A stretch of DNA of 64,000 bases, from the IMG/VR virus record IMGVR_UViG_3300014137_000003. One strand, 5' to 3'. Position numbers and translations under genes: made by a program. The notes beneath the pieces were generated by a model that worked only from the letters and a program-made list of their open reading frames with translations, searched no databases and was not told where the DNA came from. The stretch comes from a virus. Below are positions 3,934 through 32,333 of this stretch, in pieces (position 1 is the first letter of the stretch; every line of letters starts with the position of its first letter).

Positions 3934-5466
3934 ATGTCTTATGTTTATGATAAAGTAGTTACTTCATTAGGTGGCAAACCCTTAGTAAGTAGTACCAAAG
4001 AAGGTATAACTGTAAAGGGTTGGTCGCCTAATATGTTTAAGAGGGTAGCCATCTTGACGGATGGTATTGTAGTAGAGTATCATGGTAGTGTCTCTCGTAG
4101 TCGTGTTATACCTTTTAATATAGAAGATGTTAGTAAGGATTTAGCCCAAGGAGCTAAGTATAAGAACCCACTTCGTCCTCTTTTTGAGTTCAAGGCTTTG
4201 TCTTGTTTGGAAGAGTTATTAGTTTCTAGCTCTTTAGTAACTGATAAGATGGTAAATAACTTTATTTCCACTATCTCTGATACGCACAGGCTTAGGCGAG
4301 TAGGGGTACTCCCTATGGAAGTTAAGACTTCCGACATTTCTTCTCTTATTGAAAAGTGTAATGCTCAGGAAGGTGGCAAACATTTACTTCTTTCTGATTT
4401 TATAAATGGTAGCACTAAGATTTCAACTCACAATGAAGACTACTACACAAAATACTATCTACGTCCTACATTGTATGAGTTAGATAAGCCAGGTGGTAGT
4501 TTACGGAAGTATTTTGATAATGTAAAAGCTGAAGTCCTTTCTAAAAGAACTGAAAGCAACAAAGTTTCTCTAGTAAATTCTTACATTGAATACGATAAAA
4601 AGAATATTCGCTTTTGGAATAGTGTTGTTGATTTCTTAAACAATAAAGAAAATCCTACAAAGTATCCTAAGCTTTATACAACTTTGAAGGCTCATTCTGT
4701 TGCAAATAGTGGTTGTTATCTTGAGGGGCTTAAGGACTACTTTAGCTCACGTGGTACTAGCGACCCAATCTATAAGGTCTATAAAATCTTGGGGTATCTA
4801 GACACTAAGGGTTCTAGTAAACCTAACTCTGAGGCTAAAGGTTTCTTAAGAAAGATGGAATCTGTTGCAAATAATTCTTACACTTCTGTCTTAGAAGTAA
4901 TTAAGAAAGACAGCAATGGTTTATTAGGCAATCTTAAGTTACCTAAAGACTCTAGTCGCACTTACATAGTGATGTCAGTACTTGAGATTTTGAATTCCGA
5001 AACTGTCGGTACTGACAACAAAAAGGTCAAATCAGAATTCCGAGACTCTGAAGTAGAAGATGATGCAACTAAAGTTGCTAACGAAGAGTTGAAAGCTAGT
5101 ATCAAGAATTCTTTACCCGAGAGCCTAATGGTAGGGTTGTTTGACTTATGGGAGTCTCTACAAGATAGTTATAAGGAAACAGCAGGTATGCTCTTAACGG
5201 CAAAAGAAAGAGATTTCGATAAGAGGTTCTCTGAAAAGTCTTTGAGTGAGTTAGGTTTGCAACGTCATGCTGAAACCCTATCTCTATTGGGGTATTGTGG
5301 GGGTAGTGATTCCCTAGAAGGCTTGGTTGACTTATCGTTTACCGATGCTTTAAGCAGTCTCTGTCATATGGTAACGAGGGGTAGCTTAGCTGAGTTGCGT
5401 GCTGAGCCTTGGAAGAATCTTTCAGACACTGACAAATGTAGTTATATTATTGGGAGGATTAACTAG
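3934..5466 (+). CDS. Hypothetical protein
   Basis: 510-aa ORF with AAGGAGG RBS. Its stop overlaps the GTG start of the next gene (translational coupling). Confidence 0.75.
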   Translation: MSYVYDKVVTSLGGKPLVSSTKEGITVKGWSPNMFKRVAILTDGIVVEYHGSVSRSRVIPFNIEDVSKDLAQGAKYKNPLRPLFEFKALSCLEELLVSSSLVTDKMVNNFISTISDTHRLRRVGVLPMEVKTSDISSLIEKCNAQEGGKHLLLSDFINGSTKISTHNEDYYTKYYLRPTLYELDKPGGSLRKYFDNVKAEVLSKRTESNKVSLVNSYIEYDKKNIRFWNSVVDFLNNKENPTKYPKLYTTLKAHSVANSGCYLEGLKDYFSSRGTSDPIYKVYKILGYLDTKGSSKPNSEAKGFLRKMESVANNSYTSVLEVIKKDSNGLLGNLKLPKDSSRTYIVMSVLEILNSETVGTDNKKVKSEFRDSEVEDDATKVANEELKASIKNSLPESLMVGLFDLWESLQDSYKETAGMLLTAKERDFDKRFSEKSLSELGLQRHAETLSLLGYCGGSDSLEGLVDLSFTDALSSLCHMVTRGSLAELRAEPWKNLSDTDKCSYIIGRIN

Positions 5467-8400
5467 TGGCATATATTAAAGAAGTCCTTAGTGGCATTAA
5501 ACAATTAAATTCGCCTAACGAGGTCAAATCTATCGTAGTAGGTAAGGATTTTGTTTATCTACGAAAACACAAAGACGATGACCCTCAACCCAGTTTATTT
5601 ATACCGTTTGACCCTAGTTTGGTAGGTAGTGACGACCCTTTATTCTTCATGGACGAGAGGACCTATGGTACTGCCGAGGAGCTCTTTGTTTATGAGGGGT
5701 ATTCGCATTCTCCGATTATTGAGAGCTATATGCATAAGGCTACTGAAGAAAGGGCACGTCTATCTACTTTAATTATTGGTAGTAAAGAAGAGATTGATAC
5801 TTGTGCTAGTGGGGTAGATGCAGGGGCTAGTATAGAGGACTTAGGTTATTCTTATGCTAGATCGATTGTAGATTTCTCTCATATCTATCCTTTACAGCCC
5901 GAGCATTACTCTTGGGATGCCGTTGAGGGTCTTGAGTACTTTAGGGGAGTAGAGGAGCTTGTCGCCAACACGTATGGTACTGCTGAGGGTGAAGATGATT
6001 CTAGGGGTACTGAGGAAGTATCCGACGAGGACTTGGACGGTGTTGGGGGTACTAAAGAGCTAGATTCGGAAGAAGTAGAAGAAAGTACCCCTACAGCTGA
6101 TGATTATACCATCCAAGATGCCGTTGAGTACTATGCACCGCATATTGATACGGTAGTTTCTGATATTGTTTCTAACTACACAAAACTATTTAAAGCGGGG
6201 TATCAACTTAAGAGACCTGTTGGTGTTCTTGGTGAGCAGGGTGACTCGGGTAAACTTATGACTTTGAGTGGTAGTTCACAGACCTTTACGAAACCTAACC
6301 CAGTTATTCGTGCTTTATATCAGCTTACGGTTGCTGAATATAATTTGACGATACTTCCTTATCGTTCGGTTGACCATATCGCATCTATCATCGTAAACGG
6401 GGTAACTCCTGATGGGGCAACTATTTCTCCAGATACTCGATTGTACTTCCCTTATAAGATGCTAGAGTTTGCTTACGGTAGGAAGACACCTAAAGCAACT
6501 GAGGGTGGTAAAACTAACTATCCTAAGCACTCTGAAAAGTTGAACTGGGACGCTTATGCTAGTGAGGTAGACGAGAACTTACGTCAGGTTACTAGGGGTA
6601 TCGTTGCTAAAATTTTAGGAAACTTTGAAGACGTAGATTATTTTGATGCTAAGGTTGAGTCTAGTATTACTGAATCCTTAACTCGCTTTAAGGATGTGTT
6701 TACTACTTGTATTCTTGTAGGCGAGTTTCCTCTTATCAAAGGTTTACCATCCTTGTTAAAAGTTAGAACTCTTTTACCTTTTGAATTACATAATAATCAT
6801 AACGTAGCAACCGAGGCTATGAGGGTAGGTATTTCTTCTTTGGGAACCGATCCGTTTGAGGGTATTCCTATTCATGATGGGGTATATCACATGTACACCC
6901 ATGAGTATAATCACTCTTTAGCTAACAGTAAGCCAATGTATGCCTATCATGCAGCTAAATCTCTTAAAGAGTCAGGACACGAAGTAAATTATAAGAATAT
7001 GATTATCGGTCTTGGCTTGGATGATTCTATCTTGCAGAATGGTAGTGGTAATGTTAACCTCGTACCTAATATGAGCCACTTCTTAGTAGCAGGCTCTAGG
7101 GCAGGTAAGGGTGTTGACAGTATGGCAAAACTAGCAGCAGCACTTAAGTCAGGTAAACCTGTCTTTTACTTAGATAATAAGCCCGATATTGGTGCAGTTC
7201 TGTTAGATATTGAACCTAATGCCTTTGTTGTAAATGGTCAGTTGGTTACATCATCTGTCGATGGTGGTACTAATATTGGTGGTCACTTTATGGGTAGCTC
7301 AGCATTAGCTAATGTTAACCCTCAAGGTGTTCCGTCTTACTTATACAATTCTAGTGATGCCCTATTTAGGGGTAGGTCTTACAGTCAGTTGGGGGCAGTG
7401 TTCTACGCAAGAGCTTTGCAGTTGATTATGCTTATTACTTACTTTAGGACTCTAGACGATATTTCAGCTAAGATAGACTTAGGTGATAAGTCTAATGGTA
7501 TCGTTGCTTTCTTCGATGAGTTTAACGTAACACAGGATTCAGGTCTTGGACCTTTAATGCAAAAGATTTACTTCAACTATGCTAGAACAGATTATGCTGA
7601 GGCTGAGCGTAACGCCCAAGAGACTGGTAAGAAAAACTCTGTAAGGAAACCTAGTCAAAATGCCTATTGGGGTACTGCCTTTACTGAGTCCTTAAAGAAT
7701 ACGGCTATGATGTTAGCTGATGGTACTAAAGCAGGTTACATGAACGGGGAAGCAGCAGCGTCTGATATTTTTATTGTAGGTCAGGACTTACCAGATGTTA
7801 TTGAGTCTGCAGAAGATTTCGATGACTTCTTCCCAACTCACCGTGGTAAGAACACAGAACGTGCACAGTTTGCTAGTGGTAAAGGTAGTGGTAAGACTCA
7901 ACCTCTCGTTCCTTTAGTATCACCAGGTGGAGCTGATATCTTTGTGGGGTATAACCTTAAGCACTCAAATTACTTGAATCAGTCTCGTGGTTTCGCAAAA
8001 GACAAACTAGACAAAGATGCTCGTTTATTTGCTTATATTCCTACTTATAATAGGGGTACTAAGAAACAAATTGAAAGTGGTAACGAAGAGTTCGCTAGAA
8101 ATGTTCCTACTTATTATAAACCTCTCTTACTTTTAGCTGATGCTGATATGGATAAGTATTTTGTTAAGAATGCTATGTCCTATGCTATTGAGTCGGGTAT
8201 TGACGCTGAGTCTATTATCTTAGACAATGCTCAAGAGGATGAACAAGGTAACCCAATAAAATTTGAAAAACGTCAGTTTAGCGATAATAAGGGGCATAAG
8301 TATACAACAGAATATAGAATTCACCCAGCAGTAGGTTTTAAAGATTATTTAAATTATATTGGTATGGATGATTCTAGTATCTCTAGTTCCTTAAAAGCAG

Positions 8401-12524: not shown

Positions 12525-12959
12525 ATGCTATTAGTTAAGAATAGGAAGGCTTATCATGATTACTCTGTACTCCGTACCTTGGAGTGTGGGGTTGTTTTGG
12601 TAGGTAGTGAAGTTAAATCGCTAAAGGCTCATCACGGAGTCCTCAAAGGTTCTTGGGGGTATATTTCTAACGAAGAAGTGTTCTTAAAGGGGGTACACAT
12701 TCCGAAATGGGGTACGTCTGTTTGGAACCATGAAGAAGAAAGAGACCGTAAATTACTCCTACATAAAAAGGAAATTAAGGGTTTAGCGAAAGACTTGTCT
12801 CTTGGCGATGGGTTAACTCTTGTACCTTTAGAGCTTAAAGTTGTAAAAGGTCGAATAAAGTGCACTCTTGGCTTGTGTAAAGGTAAGAAAAACTATGATA
12901 AGCGTCAAGCTCTGAAAGAAAGAGACATCAAACGTAGTCTAGAAAGGTTAGTTAGGTAG
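12525..12959 (+). CDS. smpB: SsrA-binding protein SmpB (trans-translation factor)
   Basis: NRKAYHDY, GSEVKSLK, RDRKLLLHKKEI, LVPLEL and KGKKNYDKRQALKERD are collinear with bacterial SmpB. AGGAG RBS. Confidence 0.9.
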   Translation: MLLVKNRKAYHDYSVLRTLECGVVLVGSEVKSLKAHHGVLKGSWGYISNEEVFLKGVHIPKWGTSVWNHEEERDRKLLLHKKEIKGLAKDLSLGDGLTLVPLELKVVKGRIKCTLGLCKGKKNYDKRQALKERDIKRSLERLVR

Positions 12960-13662: not shown

Positions 13663-13941
13663 ATGGTAACTAAAAAGGATATTGTTTCCGAAGTATCGGC
13701 AGAGCTTGGTATTACGAAGGTGGAAGCTAATCGAACTTTTGATACAATCTTTAAGACAATTATGGATTACGTTTCTGATGGTGAAAAGGTACAAATCAAG
13801 GATTTCGGTAATTGGGAAGCTCGTTATCGTTCTGCTCGTAATGGTCGAAACCCACAAAATGGGGCACCGATTCGTATTGAAGAACGTCTTACTCCTGTAT
13901 TTAAGCCAGGAAAAGCCTTTAAAGAACAAGTTAATAAGTAG
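13663..13941 (+). CDS. hup: HU/IHF-family histone-like DNA-binding protein
   Basis: ..VQIKDFGNWEARYRSARNGRNPQNGAPIRIEERLTPVFKPGKAFK matches the HU arm (GFG.F..R.R.ARxGRNPxTG..I.I....P.FK.GK). AGGAGG RBS. Confidence 0.9.
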   Translation: MVTKKDIVSEVSAELGITKVEANRTFDTIFKTIMDYVSDGEKVQIKDFGNWEARYRSARNGRNPQNGAPIRIEERLTPVFKPGKAFKEQVNK

Positions 13942-13985
13942 ATCATTTGTATGCAGCTGACTAGGTAACTGCCTAGTCCTTATAT

Positions 13986-14057
13986 GCCCTCATAGTATAA
14001 CGGAGAGTACACAGGTTTCCTAAACCTATGATGGGGGTTCGATTCCCTCTGAGGGCA
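13986..14057 (+). tRNA. tRNA-Arg (anticodon CCU, reads AGG)
   Basis: Manual cloverleaf, 72 nt, no encoded CCA. Acceptor GCCCTCA/TGAGGGC; D-arm GTAT..GTAC with GG loop; anticodon stem AGGT/ACCT with loop TT-CCT-AA; T-arm GGGGG-TTCGATT-CCCTC; discriminator A. Confidence 0.8.
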
Positions 14058-14121
14058 TTCTACTAGTTAAGGCTAGTGGAAGACTGACTTTCTGCTGAAG
14101 TCGATGGTAACTCCTTAGTAT

Positions 14122-14147
14122 CCAGTGCAGAGGTGCACTGGTTTTTT
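14122..14147 (+). terminator. Rho-independent terminator after tRNA
   Basis: 8-bp stem CCAGTGCA/TGCACTGG, GAGG loop, T6 run. Confidence 0.8.
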
Positions 14148-14260
14148 AGTTTAATTATACAGAAATTATTTTATATCTTTAGGTATTAACTATTTAGGAG
14201 GTAGGTTTTATACTTAGTGTAATCTCTTGTAGTTTAGTATTAGATTGTTATTATTTCTTT

Positions 14261-14413
14261 TTAGGAATTACTTTAGTATCTTAGTATAATCTATCTTATT
14301 CTTGTTTACTTTTTAGTAGTTCTTTCCTATTAGATTTCTTTTCTTTCTATATTAAATCCTTTTGTATTCTCCTTATATATTACTAGCCTATTTAGGAATT
14401 GCTTTATTATCTT
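14261..14413. repeat. Two copies of a 22-bp direct repeat TTAGGAATT(A/G)CTTTA(G/T)TATCTT
   Basis: Copies at 14261-14282 and 14392-14413, 20/22 identical, in non-coding DNA. Confidence 0.7.
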
Positions 14414-14655
14414 TGTGGTAATTGGGTGTACTTTTGGTAGGATTTGTGGTATTATGGTTAGTGATTTAGATGTGGTATTTTATGTGGTAATCTCGTCCGT
14501 CTTGGGTGGGGGTATCTATTTTAAATCCGTTTTAGGGCTTGTTTGGGGCGTTTTAGCGAATAAAAATATGGGGGTAGGGGGTGTATGTCCTTGCTTGCGT
14601 ATTGTGGTTTTGTGGCTCGAAAATAGCGTGTATTTGTGGGTTTATTGTGGGTTAT
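14410..14655 (+). repeat. GT-skewed, C-poor block with at least 8 (T/A)TGTGG(T/G) boxes
   Basis: TTGTGGTA 14413, TTGTGGTA 14444, ATGTGGTA 14470, ATGTGGTA 14482, TTGTGGTT 14602, TTGTGGCT 14610, TTGTGGGT 14634, TTGTGGGT 14645 (approximate starts). Confidence 0.65.
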
Positions 14656-14719
14656 TATTGCTTATTAATCTACTATATCTATTTGTACTTAGTTGAATAT
14701 AGGAATTAGGAGTCAAAAT

Positions 14720-15337
14720 ATGGCTAACTTTTTTAGAACCTTAGATACTTCTATTAAAGATTGCTCTAGTAGTGGAGATGTTGCATCTTTGGCTATCCTA
14801 GAACGATTGAAGATGTATTTAAGTACTGGTAACTTTAGCTCTTATAGTAGGGCAAAGGAACTTATTTCTGTTAATGGCTTATCGTGGAAGGAAGCTAGTT
14901 ATGTACTAAAAATAAAGCCCGACACGGTGAAACGTGCAAGATATGCTTTGTCGGAAGAGGTTTGGAATATTGTAGGAAAAGACTTTTTCGACCGTCTTAA
15001 GGAAGGGGACTTAGCTTATTGTGATTCTATCGTTGAGTCTCTCCACGTGGAGGAGATTGTTTCCCCTATCCCTTTAGATGTTTCTAAGCTTATTAGGTCT
15101 TTGGCTAGTGAGGAAGACCTTAATAGTATAGGTAGCGTAACCGAGTTGTCTGCCTATTCGAAGGAGTTGGACTTTCTAGTTGGGATTAGCGAACCTATGG
15201 TTAGGGCAAAGGTATCTAACCTAGATATTGGTAGGCTCTTAGCATTACTAGGCATTTTGGATGGAAGCCTTGGTAATCCTCATATTAGGGTGGCGATTAA
15301 CGAACATATTCTAGGGAAAGCAGGAGATTTATTATGA
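14720..15337 (+). CDS. Putative transcription regulator with sigma-70 region-4-like HTH
   Basis: ATG 14720 after AGGAG (the track ORF starts 27 nt earlier). GLSWKEASYVLKIKPDTVKRARYAL resembles region 4.2 (LSxxEIAxxLgIsxgTVKsRlxRA). Confidence 0.4.
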   Translation: MANFFRTLDTSIKDCSSSGDVASLAILERLKMYLSTGNFSSYSRAKELISVNGLSWKEASYVLKIKPDTVKRARYALSEEVWNIVGKDFFDRLKEGDLAYCDSIVESLHVEEIVSPIPLDVSKLIRSLASEEDLNSIGSVTELSAYSKELDFLVGISEPMVRAKVSNLDIGRLLALLGILDGSLGNPHIRVAINEHILGKAGDLL

Positions 15338-16548
15338 TTCATATTAGTGAACTATATAAAAAGGATTATTTTGAGACTGTAAGTGAATATCGTTTCGCTT
15401 TATCATTTGCTATGGAGTGTGCTAGACGTGGCGATATCCTCTCGGTAGATGGGGTACGCAGTCAGGCAGACTTGAATTCTCGTGTGCATGCAGGCTACAA
15501 AAATTATCTAATGGATAATAATTTAGTTGTAGGATTTAGTAGCAAAGAAGAAGACATCTACCCTTACGAAGAACAGAATTACTCTTTCCTTAGTAAAGAT
15601 AATCTTTTTGAAGACAACGGTGAGTATCTCTATTGGGATATGGACTGGGGCTTGGAAGTGTTAGGTAGACTCTTCTATAAGCACGCAGGGGTAGGTGATA
15701 TTCCTTACTTGTTGGAGTTCCTAGTAGCTCGTCATCTCTACGATGTCCTAACTGGGAAAGAAACTCGCAAACTCTATATTAAGTTAACTATGCAACTATC
15801 TTCTACTTTCTCTAGCTATTTGGACTTGGTTTCTCTTTATAATTCTTGTCCTAACCTAGCAGAGTATGTAGAGATTGTACTGCATGAGCGTTCTTCTGTA
15901 GACCTTAAACTTTCCTTATTTAAGTATGATTCTAATAACTTAGGATTTAATAAGGAGTATACGGTGGAGGAGAAAATGAACTTCTTACAACTAAATAGGT
16001 TTACCGAAGGTATGGTACTTATTCTCTTTGATAGAAAGGGTATTAACACTTCTAATGACTTGGGAAGTATCGAGATGGCTCATTTAGTTCGTCTTGATGA
16101 AGTTGTAGACGGTAAGCTTTACCTAACCCAGTTAAGGGGTACTCGAACCTATGAGGAGACTGCTAAAGACTTCCTCATGATTCCCGAAAAGAACCGTGCA
16201 CTTTATTATGACTTATTAGATAAGTCTGATTCTGTCCATGGTTCTATGGTAGTAGACTTACGAGAGTGTGGGGTAGGAAGTCGATTTTACCGTGAGAAAC
16301 ACTTGTTAGATTCTATCTCAACTACGGATATGGTTCGTAAGTTAGTTTCTAACAATGGGAAAATCTTTGAACAAGAGATGACTGAAGCTGAAGCTATCTT
16401 CTATACCCTTATGCAAAACGACGCTCCTATAGACGCTGATTTATATAGAGATTATTATTTTGGTGGCGGAGAAGCTATTTGGGATTCCCTAGACCATGAT
16501 GGTTTTAACTCTCCTTATGACTTTATTAAGGATGAGCTTAATTTCTAG
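15334..16548 (+). CDS. Hypothetical protein
   Basis: 404-aa ORF with a 4-nt ATGA overlap with the upstream gene. Confidence 0.75.
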   Translation: MIHISELYKKDYFETVSEYRFALSFAMECARRGDILSVDGVRSQADLNSRVHAGYKNYLMDNNLVVGFSSKEEDIYPYEEQNYSFLSKDNLFEDNGEYLYWDMDWGLEVLGRLFYKHAGVGDIPYLLEFLVARHLYDVLTGKETRKLYIKLTMQLSSTFSSYLDLVSLYNSCPNLAEYVEIVLHERSSVDLKLSLFKYDSNNLGFNKEYTVEEKMNFLQLNRFTEGMVLILFDRKGINTSNDLGSIEMAHLVRLDEVVDGKLYLTQLRGTRTYEETAKDFLMIPEKNRALYYDLLDKSDSVHGSMVVDLRECGVGSRFYREKHLLDSISTTDMVRKLVSNNGKIFEQEMTEAEAIFYTLMQNDAPIDADLYRDYYFGGGEAIWDSLDHDGFNSPYDFIKDELNF

Positions 16549-16559
16549 TTTAAGTTTAG

Positions 16560-16716
16560 ATTTCCGAATACTTTATTAGGTTTTCCGAAAATATTTTTAG
16601 TTTTCTGAAATATAGGTTATGTTTTCCGAAAGTTATTTTATGTTTTCCGAAAGTTGGTTTATACTTTCTGATTTTTAGTTCCAGTAGGCTGAAAGTTTGT
16701 ATTCAGTCTTCCGAAA
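16560..16716 (+). repeat. Phased array of 7 TTTTCCGAAA boxes (iteron/operator-like)
   Basis: Boxes start at 16560, 16581, 16601, 16622, 16643, 16664 and 16707 (spacing 21, 20, 21, 21, 21, 43). The core TTC-C-GAA is a near-palindrome. Confidence 0.8.
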
Positions 16717-22147: not shown

Positions 22148-22235
22148 AGAAGTTAAAGAGTTTATATTTTGATTTCTGAGAGTTAGAGTATAGACTTCTA
22201 AAAGTAGTAGTATCTACATAATGGAGGAATTAATT

Positions 22236-23393
22236 ATGCGTGAAGTAAATGCAACCCTTATTGTCGACTTAGGTAATAGCGAGACAAGGGTTATGGTTCA
22301 GTCAGGTCTTGGTAGGAACGGTTTGGTACGCCAGCGTATGTCTTTGGTAAGCAATAAATATGCGTCCTTACGAGAGGGGTACGAAGTTCCAGAAACTTAC
22401 ACAGAAGAGAACTCATCTATTCTAAGAACTAAGGATGGAGAGTTGTTTGCAAATGGATTGCTTGTAGAACGTGAGTTTTCGGTAGCACCTTTACGTCCAA
22501 CAAACTTGGAGAAAAAGCACGAAAGTAAGGTAACTATGATTACAATTCAACGTGCTTTCTTAGAGGGGTATAAATTGCTCTCTCAAATGTACCGAACATC
22601 TATGTCAAACCTTGACGTTACTTGGAAGGTAGTTTATTTGCTACCACCAAATGATATTTCTGAGGGTGCTAAGGTACTGTACGAAAAGATTGTAGGTCTT
22701 AAAACTCTTGAGTTTGTATTGCCTGAGTTTTCTGTTGATTTAAAAATCGAGGGTGCTAAAGTTTACCCAGAAGGGTTTGCAGCCTATATTGGAACTCTTA
22801 TGCGTAAAGGTAAAACTATCAATGAAGAGTTTAAAGGTTTGCTTGAATCAACAACCCTTATTGTTGACATCGGTGCAGGAACTACGGACTTCTTCGTGGT
22901 AGAGGGGATGGACACCATTGACTCTACTAAATCAACAATTCAAATTGGGGGTAACAACGTAACAGCATCTCTACGTCAACGAATGGCGAGTGCAGGTCTT
23001 AGTCTAACTGATAAGGTTATTGAGAAAGGTGTTCGCACTGGATATGTGAAAGATGGTGCTAAAACAATCAAAGTTGTTAAGGCTTTGGTGGCAGCAAAAC
23101 AGGACACTGCAAGCGTTCTTTTGGGTTCCATTATCTCTTATTTGGAAAGTGCTAACTATAACATTCGTACCATTGAAAATCTCCTTGTAGTTGGAGGTGG
23201 TAGTATCCCTAGTGATATCGAGGGTGTTAAGTCTCTGTCTGAGTATGTAGTAGAACGCTTAAAAGATTTTGCTCCTAACATTCAGTTGGTAAACTTGCCT
23301 AAAGAATATAAAGGTGAAGATACTACTGGTGGGGAGTTGAATCCTCGATTGTTAAACATTCTAGGTGCAGGGGTACTAGCAGAAATGGGGTAA
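22236..23393 (+). CDS. Actin-like ATPase (ParM/Alp family)
   Basis: ATG 22236 after GGAGG. Phosphate-1 LIVDLGNSETR, phosphate-2 LIVDIGAGTTDF, adenosine motif LLVVGGGS. Confidence 0.75.
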   Translation: MREVNATLIVDLGNSETRVMVQSGLGRNGLVRQRMSLVSNKYASLREGYEVPETYTEENSSILRTKDGELFANGLLVEREFSVAPLRPTNLEKKHESKVTMITIQRAFLEGYKLLSQMYRTSMSNLDVTWKVVYLLPPNDISEGAKVLYEKIVGLKTLEFVLPEFSVDLKIEGAKVYPEGFAAYIGTLMRKGKTINEEFKGLLESTTLIVDIGAGTTDFFVVEGMDTIDSTKSTIQIGGNNVTASLRQRMASAGLSLTDKVIEKGVRTGYVKDGAKTIKVVKALVAAKQDTASVLLGSIISYLESANYNIRTIENLLVVGGGSIPSDIEGVKSLSEYVVERLKDFAPNIQLVNLPKEYKGEDTTGGELNPRLLNILGAGVLAEMG

Positions 23394-31548: not shown

Positions 31549-31979
31549 GAGTAATTGAGCTCCGTATCTCTGGTGACAGGGGTATGTCCTTACAAGCGTT
31601 AAACACTAGGAAGTCCTTAAAGCCCTACTGCTAAAACAGAGTTGGAAACGACAAATGGTAAAGTAGCGAAAGCGGAAAGAAGAGTAGGGATACCAATAAG
31701 CTGAAATAAAAGCTATAACTATTCTTGGTTATGGTGCTAAGTTGGTGTAAATAGGGTATTTAGTTACGAACCTCTAAGGCAAATTAGCTATGAGGCACGT
31801 TCATCGACTAGGTTCTTGGAAGGAACCGACCGGAAGGTCTTAATGTAGCCTAGCAAGTGCAGGCGAAAAATGCTTGGGCTTTGTTTATAAGCAAAGTTTA
31901 ACACATAGTCACGTCTTACATCGTAAGGGTGTAAGCTACTGAAATAGTAGGGTTAGGGGTAACGTCCTAGCAAAGATCG
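31549..31979 (+). ncRNA. ORF-less group I intron (boundaries inferred, +/- a few nt)
   Basis: R-like core GTTCATCGACTAGG (31799-31812) and S-like CATAGTC (31904-31910) can form P7 GACTA/TAGTC. GACC-GGAA-GGTC tetraloop hairpin. The preceding exon ends in T and the intron ends in G. Splicing restores SPPYF|LENYGE. Confidence 0.65.
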
Positions 31980-32333
31980 TTAGAAAATTATGGCGAACAT
32001 GATGCAAATAGAGCAAATCAATCACATGTCAAATTCTCAGGTTTAGAATCTTGGCTAGAGGGGTATGTTCGAGGGACTTGTAAAAACATCTACAAAGCTC
32101 TTAAGGGTGGTGCATTCAGTGCAGTAAATATCGCTGACTTCAACATGAAGGGTAGGGGTATGGTTTCCTTTGTAGATGAGTGGAAACGAATTGCGGAAGA
32201 AGAAGGGCTTGAATACTACACTAATATTTATCTAGGTGTAACAGCCCGAGCAGGTTCTTTGGAACAAGAACTTGGGGTAGCTAAGAAGGAAATCATTATG
32301 GTTTTTCGTTCGACTAAACCTGTGTGGGGTTAG
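31980..32333 (+). CDS. DNA methyltransferase, exon 2
   Basis: Frame is open from 31971. LENYGEHDANRANQSHVKFSGLESWLEGYV.. is the expected continuation after SPPYF (..LExY...qS...y..W..). The track ORF starts only at the internal Met 32145. Confidence 0.65.
   Translation, partial: LENYGEHDANRANQSHVKFSGLESWLEGYVRGTCKNIYKALKGGAFSAVNIADFNMKGRGMVSFVDEWKRIAEEEGLEYYTNIYLGVTARAGSLEQELGVAKKEIIMVFRSTKPVWG

Follow-up and report, generated by a model that had tools for sequence, protein, structure and literature searches.

A conserved non-coding stretch with a sigma-A-type promoter signature at the head of a DNA-maintenance operon in a giant relative of pXO16

The stretch studied here, positions 14148-14719 of IMG/VR virus record IMGVR_UViG_3300014137_000003, is a gene-free gap of 572 nt (661 nt if measured from the end of the preceding tRNA gene) in DNA that is part of a giant plasmid- or phage-like element of human-associated bacteria. 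In the window, that is, the whole 64,000-nucleotide stretch of DNA that was analysed, every gene lies on the + strand, the GC content is 37% and the GC skew is approximately +0.19. Around the gap the order is SmpB gene, HNH-like gene, HU gene, tRNA-Arg(CCT), terminator, the gap itself, a gene for a 205-amino-acid (205-aa) protein, a gene for a 404-aa protein and a UvrD-like helicase gene, and the operon behind the gap extends further to genes for a DHH protein and an actin-like partition protein (Table 1). An earlier note, made from the letters of the window alone, had proposed the gap as a candidate origin or master control region, and all the elements that it listed were found to be present, including the tRNA terminator upstream. 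Its description of the gap as the longest gene-free stretch of the window is only approximate, because positions 31555-32144 provide a stretch of similar length (about 590 nt) without any + strand open reading frame (ORF) of at least 30 aa.

Scans with the 404-aa protein gave two viral contigs and 31 metagenome loci as relatives, and three more divergent contigs were obtained from a protein database; the contigs of the relatives reach 180-250 kb. No match was found in the phage collection by DNA or protein search, nor in a plasmid protein search with the 404-aa protein, and one GTDB genome scan gave no relative. The order tRNA-Arg(CCT), gap (500-1230 nt), 206-aa gene and 405-aa gene is kept in 29 loci and in L048, while L047 has kept the gap and the genes and lacks the tRNA. 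In 30 relatives from several clades the full succession can be followed: tRNA-Arg(CCT) and a terminator come first, then an AT-rich half that varies and a GT-rich half that is conserved, and after these the 205-aa gene, the 404-aa gene and the UvrD-like helicase gene. The two halves of the gap behave differently, in that the last ~330 nt can be aligned across clades whose 404-aa proteins are merely 51-58% identical, whereas the first half cannot be aligned between clades and ranges from ~200 to 930 nt in size. Beside the conserved helicase operon of the family we found no non-coding DNA more strongly conserved than this stretch, which yields a defined promoter, a handful of conserved DNA words and a pair of candidate proteins.

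The sole word that is fully invariant, in 19 of 19 aligned sequences, is TGTGGTA. A regular-expression scan showed that it forms part of a longer pattern, hereafter P1, consisting of a -35-like hexamer, exactly 17 nt and TGTGG+TAnnnT, which is present with an invariant spacer in 30 of the 31 sequences, and the distance from its -10 to the start codon is 248-265 nt across relatives. Because of this conserved hexamer-17 nt-TGTGGTA pattern, two of the TGTGG-type boxes can be assigned to the -35 and -10 regions of P1. P1 displays both features expected of a sigma-A/sigma-70 promoter, namely a -35-like hexamer at 17 ± 1 nt and a TRTG-type extended -10; TGTGG+TATAAT is the TRTGn extended -10 form of Gram-positive promoters. 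As judged by these features, P1 is of the promoter type read by the main sigma factor of the host (sigma-A type), and host RNA polymerase would start transcription near 14462. The element uses similar words elsewhere: TGTGGTAnAAT follows terminators and precedes genes at other places in the relative G001 (IMGVR_UViG_3300045988_154631), and TGnTAnAAT does so at other places in the window, always on the + strand. P1 thus resembles the Gram-positive extended -10 (-16 region) promoters with a weak -35 found at operon boundaries in that TGTGG+TATTAT lies 17 nt after a TTGACA-like hexamer and behind a terminator, in that the same form stands before other genes of the element and in that the spacer is invariant across relatives. 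It differs from plain promoters of this kind in being followed by two to three further G(T/G)GG(T/C)A words at fixed positions and by a leader of ~260 nt that is unusually G-rich and C-poor.

With regard to the region downstream of P1, two boxes have their GTGG at +26 and +38 relative to the same word in the P1 -10, or at ~+10 and ~+22 of the presumed transcript. Their positions (25/26 and 37/38) are kept in four clades with the consensus G(T/G)GG(T/C)A; in the window they can be read as mimics of an extended -10, and in other clades they are poorer mimics. Further downstream, every clade, L048 among them, has kept the purine-rich block GCGAATAAAAATAT-GGGGGTAGGGGG, and L047 has kept it in part. 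The earlier note had proposed to examine whether the boxes are conserved in related elements. This proved to be so for the P1 box, the +26/+38 boxes and the box at 14635, and not for the other distal boxes. The whole tract after P1 contains 26-36% G and 6-12% C and carries GGGTGGGGG and GGGGGTAGGGGG. The two proximal boxes bear some likeness to the sigma-dependent promoter-proximal pause sites of lambda PR' and lacUV5, as they are -10-like TGnTAnnnT words that fall on the non-template strand in roughly the first 30 nt of the presumed transcript; unlike those sites, the words are poor -10 mimics in some clades (CATCCC, or GGGGCA without TG), and no Q-like antiterminator was identified. Two other promoter classes were considered and rejected: a sigma-54 (-24/-12) reading of the TGGCA-N-GGGCA of relatives has, by eye, a spacing that is 1-2 bases too long, with T in place of C in the window, and the com-box of streptococcal ComX (sigma-X) has no perfect TACGAATA in the 64 kb, the (A/T)(G/A/C)CGAA(T/A)A sequence merely resembling it.

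Taken together, we consider it somewhat more probable than not (probability roughly 0.55) that the stretch is a promoter and control region which heads a conserved DNA-maintenance operon at an operon boundary. Its anatomy, its conservation and its match to the promoter type of the element itself are demonstrated by the comparisons above, and the suggestion of the earlier note that it marks a boundary between transcription units, or a master control region, agrees well with a terminator that ends the tRNA unit and a promoter, shared by 30 of 31 relatives, that opens the next. According to this model, the terminator closes the tRNA unit and is followed by an AT-rich spacer of varying size, after which the conserved P1, of the form TG(G/T)ACT, 17 nt, TGTGG-TATTAT, would open the operon and give rise to a C-poor leader of ~260 nt without a conserved fold. 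The G(T/G)GG(T/C)A boxes at ~+10 and ~+22 would act on the promoter-proximal complex, either as operator sites for a DNA-binding protein encoded by the element, for which the 205-aa product would be the first candidate, or alternatively as -10-like sites at which sigma re-binds (pause sites). The AT-rich half would supply extra promoters and regulator sites, the number of which varies by lineage. The control region is, as far as can be read from the alignments, a conserved non-coding stretch built round a standard bacterial promoter.

Several observations weigh against this interpretation. The -35 of P1 in the window matches the consensus at just 3 of 6 positions, and a generic sigma-70 scan revealed no excess of promoters in the stretch. 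Clade L048, with a 404-aa protein of 67% identity, lacks the +26/+38 boxes; they are therefore dispensable and would be modulators rather than essentials. As a DNA binder, the 205-aa protein has no Pfam or PDB sequence match, and its best fold match to sigma region 4 is weak (2o8x, E 5, probability 0.35). Moreover, a plain promoter leaves unexplained the marked excess of G, the purine-rich block GAA(A/T)AAAAnATAT-GGGG, the conserved size of the leader and the 21-bp-phased arrays of relatives.

Table 1. Position of the features in and around the gap (all coordinates refer to the window)
Feature	Position	Strand	Remarks
SmpB gene	12525-12959	+	Pfam PF01668, E 4e-47, full-length
HU gene	13663-13941	+	upstream of the tRNA
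tRNA-Arg(CCT)	13985-14058	+	ARAGORN; Rfam 62.7 bits
Intrinsic terminator closing the tRNA unit	14122-14147	+	8-bp stem with 5 G-C pairs, then TTTTTT
AT-rich variable half	14148-14413	+	~76-80% AT; three promoter-like cores
Promoter-like core TTAACT-17-TATACT	14186-14214	+	
Promoter-like core TTAGGA-18-TATAAT	14261-14290	+	perfect TATAAT at 14285-14290
Direct repeat, copy 1, TTAGGAATTACTTTAGTATCTT	14261-14282	+	-35-like hexamer and spacer of the TATAAT at 14285-14290
Direct repeat, copy 2	14392-14413	+	20/22 identical; repeats the -35 and spacer of the TTAGGA core; leads straight into the first TGTGGTAAT box (14414)
93-aa ORF, not a gene	14415-14696	+	composition-driven
P1, -35-like hexamer (predicted)	14427-14432	+	window TGTACT (3/6), most relatives TGGACT (4/6); within a GGTG(G/T)ACTTTT block
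P1, extended -10, TGTGG + TATTAT (predicted)	14445-14455	+	TAnnnT kept in 30/31
Two boxes, TGTGGTATTTT and TGTGGTAATCT	14471-14493	+	GTGG starts at +26 and +38 from the P1 -10 GTGG
G-run GGGTGGGGGTATC	14504-14516	+	one GGGGTA(TC) copy
Conserved block CCGTTTTAGGGC	14527-14538	+	GTTTT kept in 5-6/6 clade representatives
GCGAATAAAAATAT + GGGGGTAGGGGG	14556-14581 (GGGGGTAGGGGG 14570-14581)	+	purine-rich; second GGGGTA copy; deepest-conserved after P1
Distal TGTGG boxes (14603, 14611, 14635, 14646)	14602-14654	+	only 14635 conserved
Shine-Dalgarno AGGAG and ATG of the 205-aa gene	14706-14722	+	
205-aa gene and 404-aa gene	14720-16548 (205-aa gene 14720-15337)	+	4-nt overlap; pair kept in all relatives and pXO16
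Actin-like protein gene (recognisable segregation gene)	22221-23393	+	7.5 kb off, behind its own promoter-bearing gap

The composition of the stretch is extreme within the 64 kb. In windows of 300 nt, the maxima of G+T content (0.73, 4.6 standard deviations above the mean) and of GC skew (0.56) both fall in it, and so does the maximum of AT content, 0.76 at 14141-14440 in its first half. Precisely where P1 starts, at 14400, the number of G per 50 nt climbs from 4 to 15, and the scarcity of C that had been ascribed to the second half amounts to 6-12% per 50-nt bin between 14400 and 14650. As to the TGTGG boxes, of which at least eight of the form (T/A)TGTGG(T/G) had been claimed, TGTGG does occur eight times in 14400-14700, and the strict form seven times. 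Both counts clearly exceed those that a first-order Markov model built on these 300 nt leads one to expect (8 against 1.6, p ~4e-4, and 7 against 0.75, p <2e-4, respectively). All the boxes are on the + strand, and 5 of the window's 17 + strand copies of TGTGGT lie within the stretch.

Both G-runs described previously were recovered, and they are ordinary copies of GGGGTA, a + strand word of the element as a whole. The window has 159 copies of this word on its + strand and 8 on its - strand, with the flank consensus (A/T)GGGGTA(T)(C), and the word is over-represented genome-wide (159 observed, 60-115 expected); in G001 it occurs 246 times on the + strand, where no 5-kb bin lacks it, versus 6 times on the - strand. 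GTGGTA, in contrast, shows no such excess (44 observed, 45-49 expected). The TGTGG boxes are therefore not variants of the GGGGTA word and constitute a separate, local feature.

The 93-aa ORF predicted across the second half had been regarded as a by-product of its composition, and the comparison with relatives bears this out. A real gene for a small hydrophobic protein could be argued from the open frame in the window and from an ORF of 85 aa in L002. The frame is, however, interrupted in L009, a relative with 95% identity in the adjacent 404-aa protein, and it is also broken in L010 and most clades. Variable sites are spread evenly over the three codon phases (28/27/28), so there is no codon periodicity, the alignment indels of the region are not multiples of 3, and no Pfam or other family match was obtained. 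The ORF can hardly be a real gene. Apart from this frame, all six frames of the gap are full of stops of the three types TAA, TAG and TGA, and because of this mixture the first half is not recoded coding sequence; stop-codon recoding was rejected on the same ground.

A functional RNA in the GT-rich half, be it a structured leader, a riboswitch or a small RNA, could likewise account for a conserved leader size (248-265 nt), for conserved blocks all through the half and for the single-sequence fold with z = -2.6. Such a fold should be retained among relatives, and RNAalifold on 19 sequences of four clades returned just one 4-pair stem of -0.18 kcal/mol. There is no Rfam match at E ≤1 inside the stretch, few G-C pairs are possible since C makes up only 6-12%, and the ACCCCTAT/ATAGGGGT pairing of other clades is impossible in the clade of the window. 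An RNA function is consequently judged to be very improbable. The lack of a consensus RNA structure, of an Rfam family and of a conserved ORF fits a plain control region.

The two proteins encoded directly behind the gap gave nothing significant in Pfam, PHROGs, PDB sequence profiles or AlphaFold plus Foldseek, and among 5.8 billion proteins their homologues carried no informative name (two were called 'hypothetical protein') and no Pfam domain. The 205-aa protein is modelled as all-helical (pLDDT 73), and the model of the 404-aa protein is poor (pLDDT 57). The only cultured relative found was pXO16 of Bacillus thuringiensis, which is the best plasmid match of the helicase (35% identity, E 1e-110) and has the same trio of a 205-aa gene, a 407-aa gene overlapping it by 4 nt and the helicase gene. 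The 205-aa proteins of window and pXO16 are distant homologues (hhalign probability 94.5%, E 7.5e-8), as are the 404-aa and 407-aa proteins (BLASTP E 1e-8). By these protein matches the kinship with pXO16 is verified, and the element is to be regarded as a giant, fully co-oriented pXO16 relative. Both pXO16 and its newly seen human-associated relatives are giant mobile elements that are almost wholly uncharacterised in terms of replicon and regulatory logic; a review of pXO16 marks merely a broad 'replication region' (PMC6199540).

The homologous locus of pXO16 (pAM65-52-2-350K / pBTHD789-1; L045, NZ_CP013277.1) lies upstream of WP_000251920 and WP_001235238. As in the window, a large gap free of coding sequence (CDS) is followed by the 205-aa gene, the overlapping ~405-aa gene and the UvrD-like helicase gene, and GTGGAC and GTGTAC boxes are situated at the promoter. 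Unlike in the window, the gap is 1.69 kb long, has no tRNA and no GT skew, and contains ~15 units of AATCTGAAAGTTATAGTAACG with 21-bp spacing. It carries the promoters TTGACA-17-TGgTATAAT and TGTACA-16-TATAAT, the latter with a putative palindromic GTGGACA(N2)TGTCC operator on either side; the boxes are thus arranged as palindromes in pXO16, whereas all are direct in the window. The 16-bp palindromes around the promoter, GTGGACAATTGTCTCC and GTGGACATATGTCCTC, are 141 bp apart, and array and palindromes occupy 5319-5640 and 6200-6360 of NZ_CP013277.1.

In the AT-rich half of the window, the two 22-bp direct repeats reported earlier are indeed 20/22 identical, and they are embedded in a 29-nt pair with 86% identity. 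Inspection of their letters indicates that they are a duplicated promoter-like core (TTAGGA plus an 18-nt spacer) specific to the clade, and no iteron array; TATAAT and the spacing of the copy-1 core are kept in the relative L010. For an iteron array, at least three direct repeats of 17-22 bp in helical phase would be expected, and the window has a single pair, 131 bp apart. Arrays with a period of 21 bp are, on the other hand, present at the homologous place in L020 and pXO16, and arrays with two-turn phasing serve as docking platforms for DNA-binding proteins. In L020 (2336-2902) the AT-rich half has grown to ~930 nt by three distinct arrays of this period, made up of TAGGTAATTATGGTAAA (4 copies), TTTGTAACTAYWGTAAC (~14 copies) and CTTGTAATCGGCTTTGCTCTA (5.7 copies).

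These arrays bring up the possibility that the gap is or contains the vegetative origin, a function that would be added to the promoter and would not exclude P1. Replication would then be of the unidirectional theta type, the AT-rich half serving as unwinding region with initiator repeats, and transcription from P1 activating or priming the leading strand in the + direction. The most AT-rich 300 nt of the window do lie beside its most strand-asymmetric 300 nt, so that an AT-rich unwinding region (14141-14440, 76% AT) would be adjacent. L020-type relatives and pXO16 have ~15-25 direct repeats in 21-bp phase at the same place, the neighbours are DNA-maintenance genes (HU upstream; helicase, DHH and actin-like partition protein downstream), and the single-stranded DNA shows less folding than shuffled sequences do (z +2.3 for either strand), which suits a region that is kept open. 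The layout, moreover, is like that of the iteron theta replicons (P1 oriR/incC-repA, F ori2, lactococcal Rep_3), which share with the window an AT-rich tract, direct repeats and a promoter before one or two genes, and with its relatives the 21-22-bp phasing. Unlike in these replicons, a phased array is missing from the window, the stretch carries no DnaA box and no known Rep family is represented beside the gap. Neither TTATCCACA nor TGTGGATAA occurs at ≤1 mismatch in 14148-14719 (the whole window has 14 such matches against 18 expected), and the adjacent proteins have no family or fold match to Rep, DnaA or AAA+. The arrays of relatives sit in the half that is not conserved, the homologous stretch of G001 is not a compositional extreme, and a separate 21-bp array 2 kb downstream, ahead of the helicase gene, would qualify just as well. 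An origin at this place is accordingly a tentative proposal, which we hold to be distinctly less probable than not. Two related ideas were dropped: the TGTGG boxes are not DnaA boxes, as just 6-7 positions of the 9-mer are matched, and the hairpins of a single-strand origin or primosome site (sso/ssi) are lacking, both strands folding worse than all 100 shuffles.

An inflection of GC skew, proposed earlier as a means of locating an origin, was found neither in the window, where the skew is monotonic, nor anywhere on the complete relative G001, a circular assembly of 179,785 bp with a 55-bp end overlap. In G001 every ORF of at least 100 aa is on one strand and the GC skew is positive in each 5-kb bin throughout. 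The positive skew and the + strand genes thus extend all the way round, and because there is no switch of strand or skew on the complete relative, the skew cannot place an origin on this element. Such co-orientation and one-way skew fit unidirectional replication in the + direction, which is that of P1, or a skew driven by transcription.

By analogy, the region might be a transcription-primed unidirectional origin of the R-loop type, common to the whole pXO16-like family, although we regard this as unlikely. RNA polymerase from P1 would transcribe the C-poor, G-clustered tract, GAA(A/T)AAAAnATAT-GGGGGTAGGGGG would hold the transcript as a stable RNA-DNA hybrid, perhaps aided by G-quadruplexes on the displaced strand, and the RNA would prime the leading strand in the direction of every gene. 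In terms of composition only, the stretch has what an R-loop would need, namely a promoter that reads into a tract whose non-template strand is rich in G and contains G-clusters. The same arrangement, with GGGGGTAGGGGG as G-cluster, recalls ColE1 RNA II, T4 oriF/oriG, the pAMbeta1 family and mitochondrial LSP-CSBII, and the element of the window also looks unidirectionally organised; this is a resemblance only, seen here in the sequence. If true, the model would account for a circle of 180-350 kb that is co-oriented, uniformly GC-skewed and marked by GGGGTA on one strand. An origin at this place would also supply the missing minimal replicon of the family and a mechanistic reason for its one-directional genome design.

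A third DNA-level function would be that of a centromere-like partition site, which would also be the operator of its own operon, with the 205-aa protein as the adaptor that coats the repeats, on the model of parC/ParR, tubC/TubR or the omega sites of pSM19035. In L020 and pXO16, short direct-repeat arrays do stand just upstream of an operon with a small helical first gene, the number of repeats differs between relatives, and pXO16 has its putative palindromic operators around the promoter. The window, however, is without an array, the 404-aa protein has no family or fold match to an NTPase, and the recognisable segregation gene is that of the actin-like protein, 7.5 kb away and preceded by a promoter-bearing gap of its own. 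A partition site is therefore considered rather improbable.

A separate 21-bp-phased TTTC(C/T)GAA array precedes the helicase gene at 16560-16716 of the window, and it is kept in most clades (same gap in L010, L015, L001, L002 and L048). Its unit (e.g. AGTTTTCTGAAATAT) seems to resemble the Firmicute CodY box, AATTTTCWGAAAATT. A link between the conserved TTTT(N)CGAA block and the TTTTCCGAAA array at the helicase gene was not upheld, since the match in the window requires a gap, and is kept as a lead only; an exact ATTTCCGAAT is present in L010.

Some further observations concern other parts of the element. An SmpB gene is unusual on a mobile element, and a tmRNA gene to go with it was looked for with ARAGORN and Rfam and not found in the 64-kb window. 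The region 31555-32144, which has normal GC content, three copies of GGGGTA and no Rfam match at the gathering threshold, is a candidate non-coding RNA or degraded gene. The contigs L005 (ODWI01000005.1, 186 kb) and L007 (ODJE01000007.1, 189 kb) are two independent assemblies of the window's element and start within ~30 nt of one genomic position, ~5 kb ahead of the start of the window; a third assembly (BNJU01004314.1) does not start there. The common start may reflect either a genuine end or a break induced by a repeat. Finally, a hairpin begins directly 3' of tRNA-Arg(CCT) in every clade (14059-14121 in the window; also L010, L048, L001 and L015). Its letters vary and its complementarity is kept, as in TCTACTAG...CTAGTGGA of the window, TAGTAAGG...CCTTACTA of L001 and the 11-bp stem of L048, and a second stem, GACTT-TCTGCTG-AAGTC, is kept within the clade of the window. 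These hairpins may represent a tRNA trailer or a small RNA.

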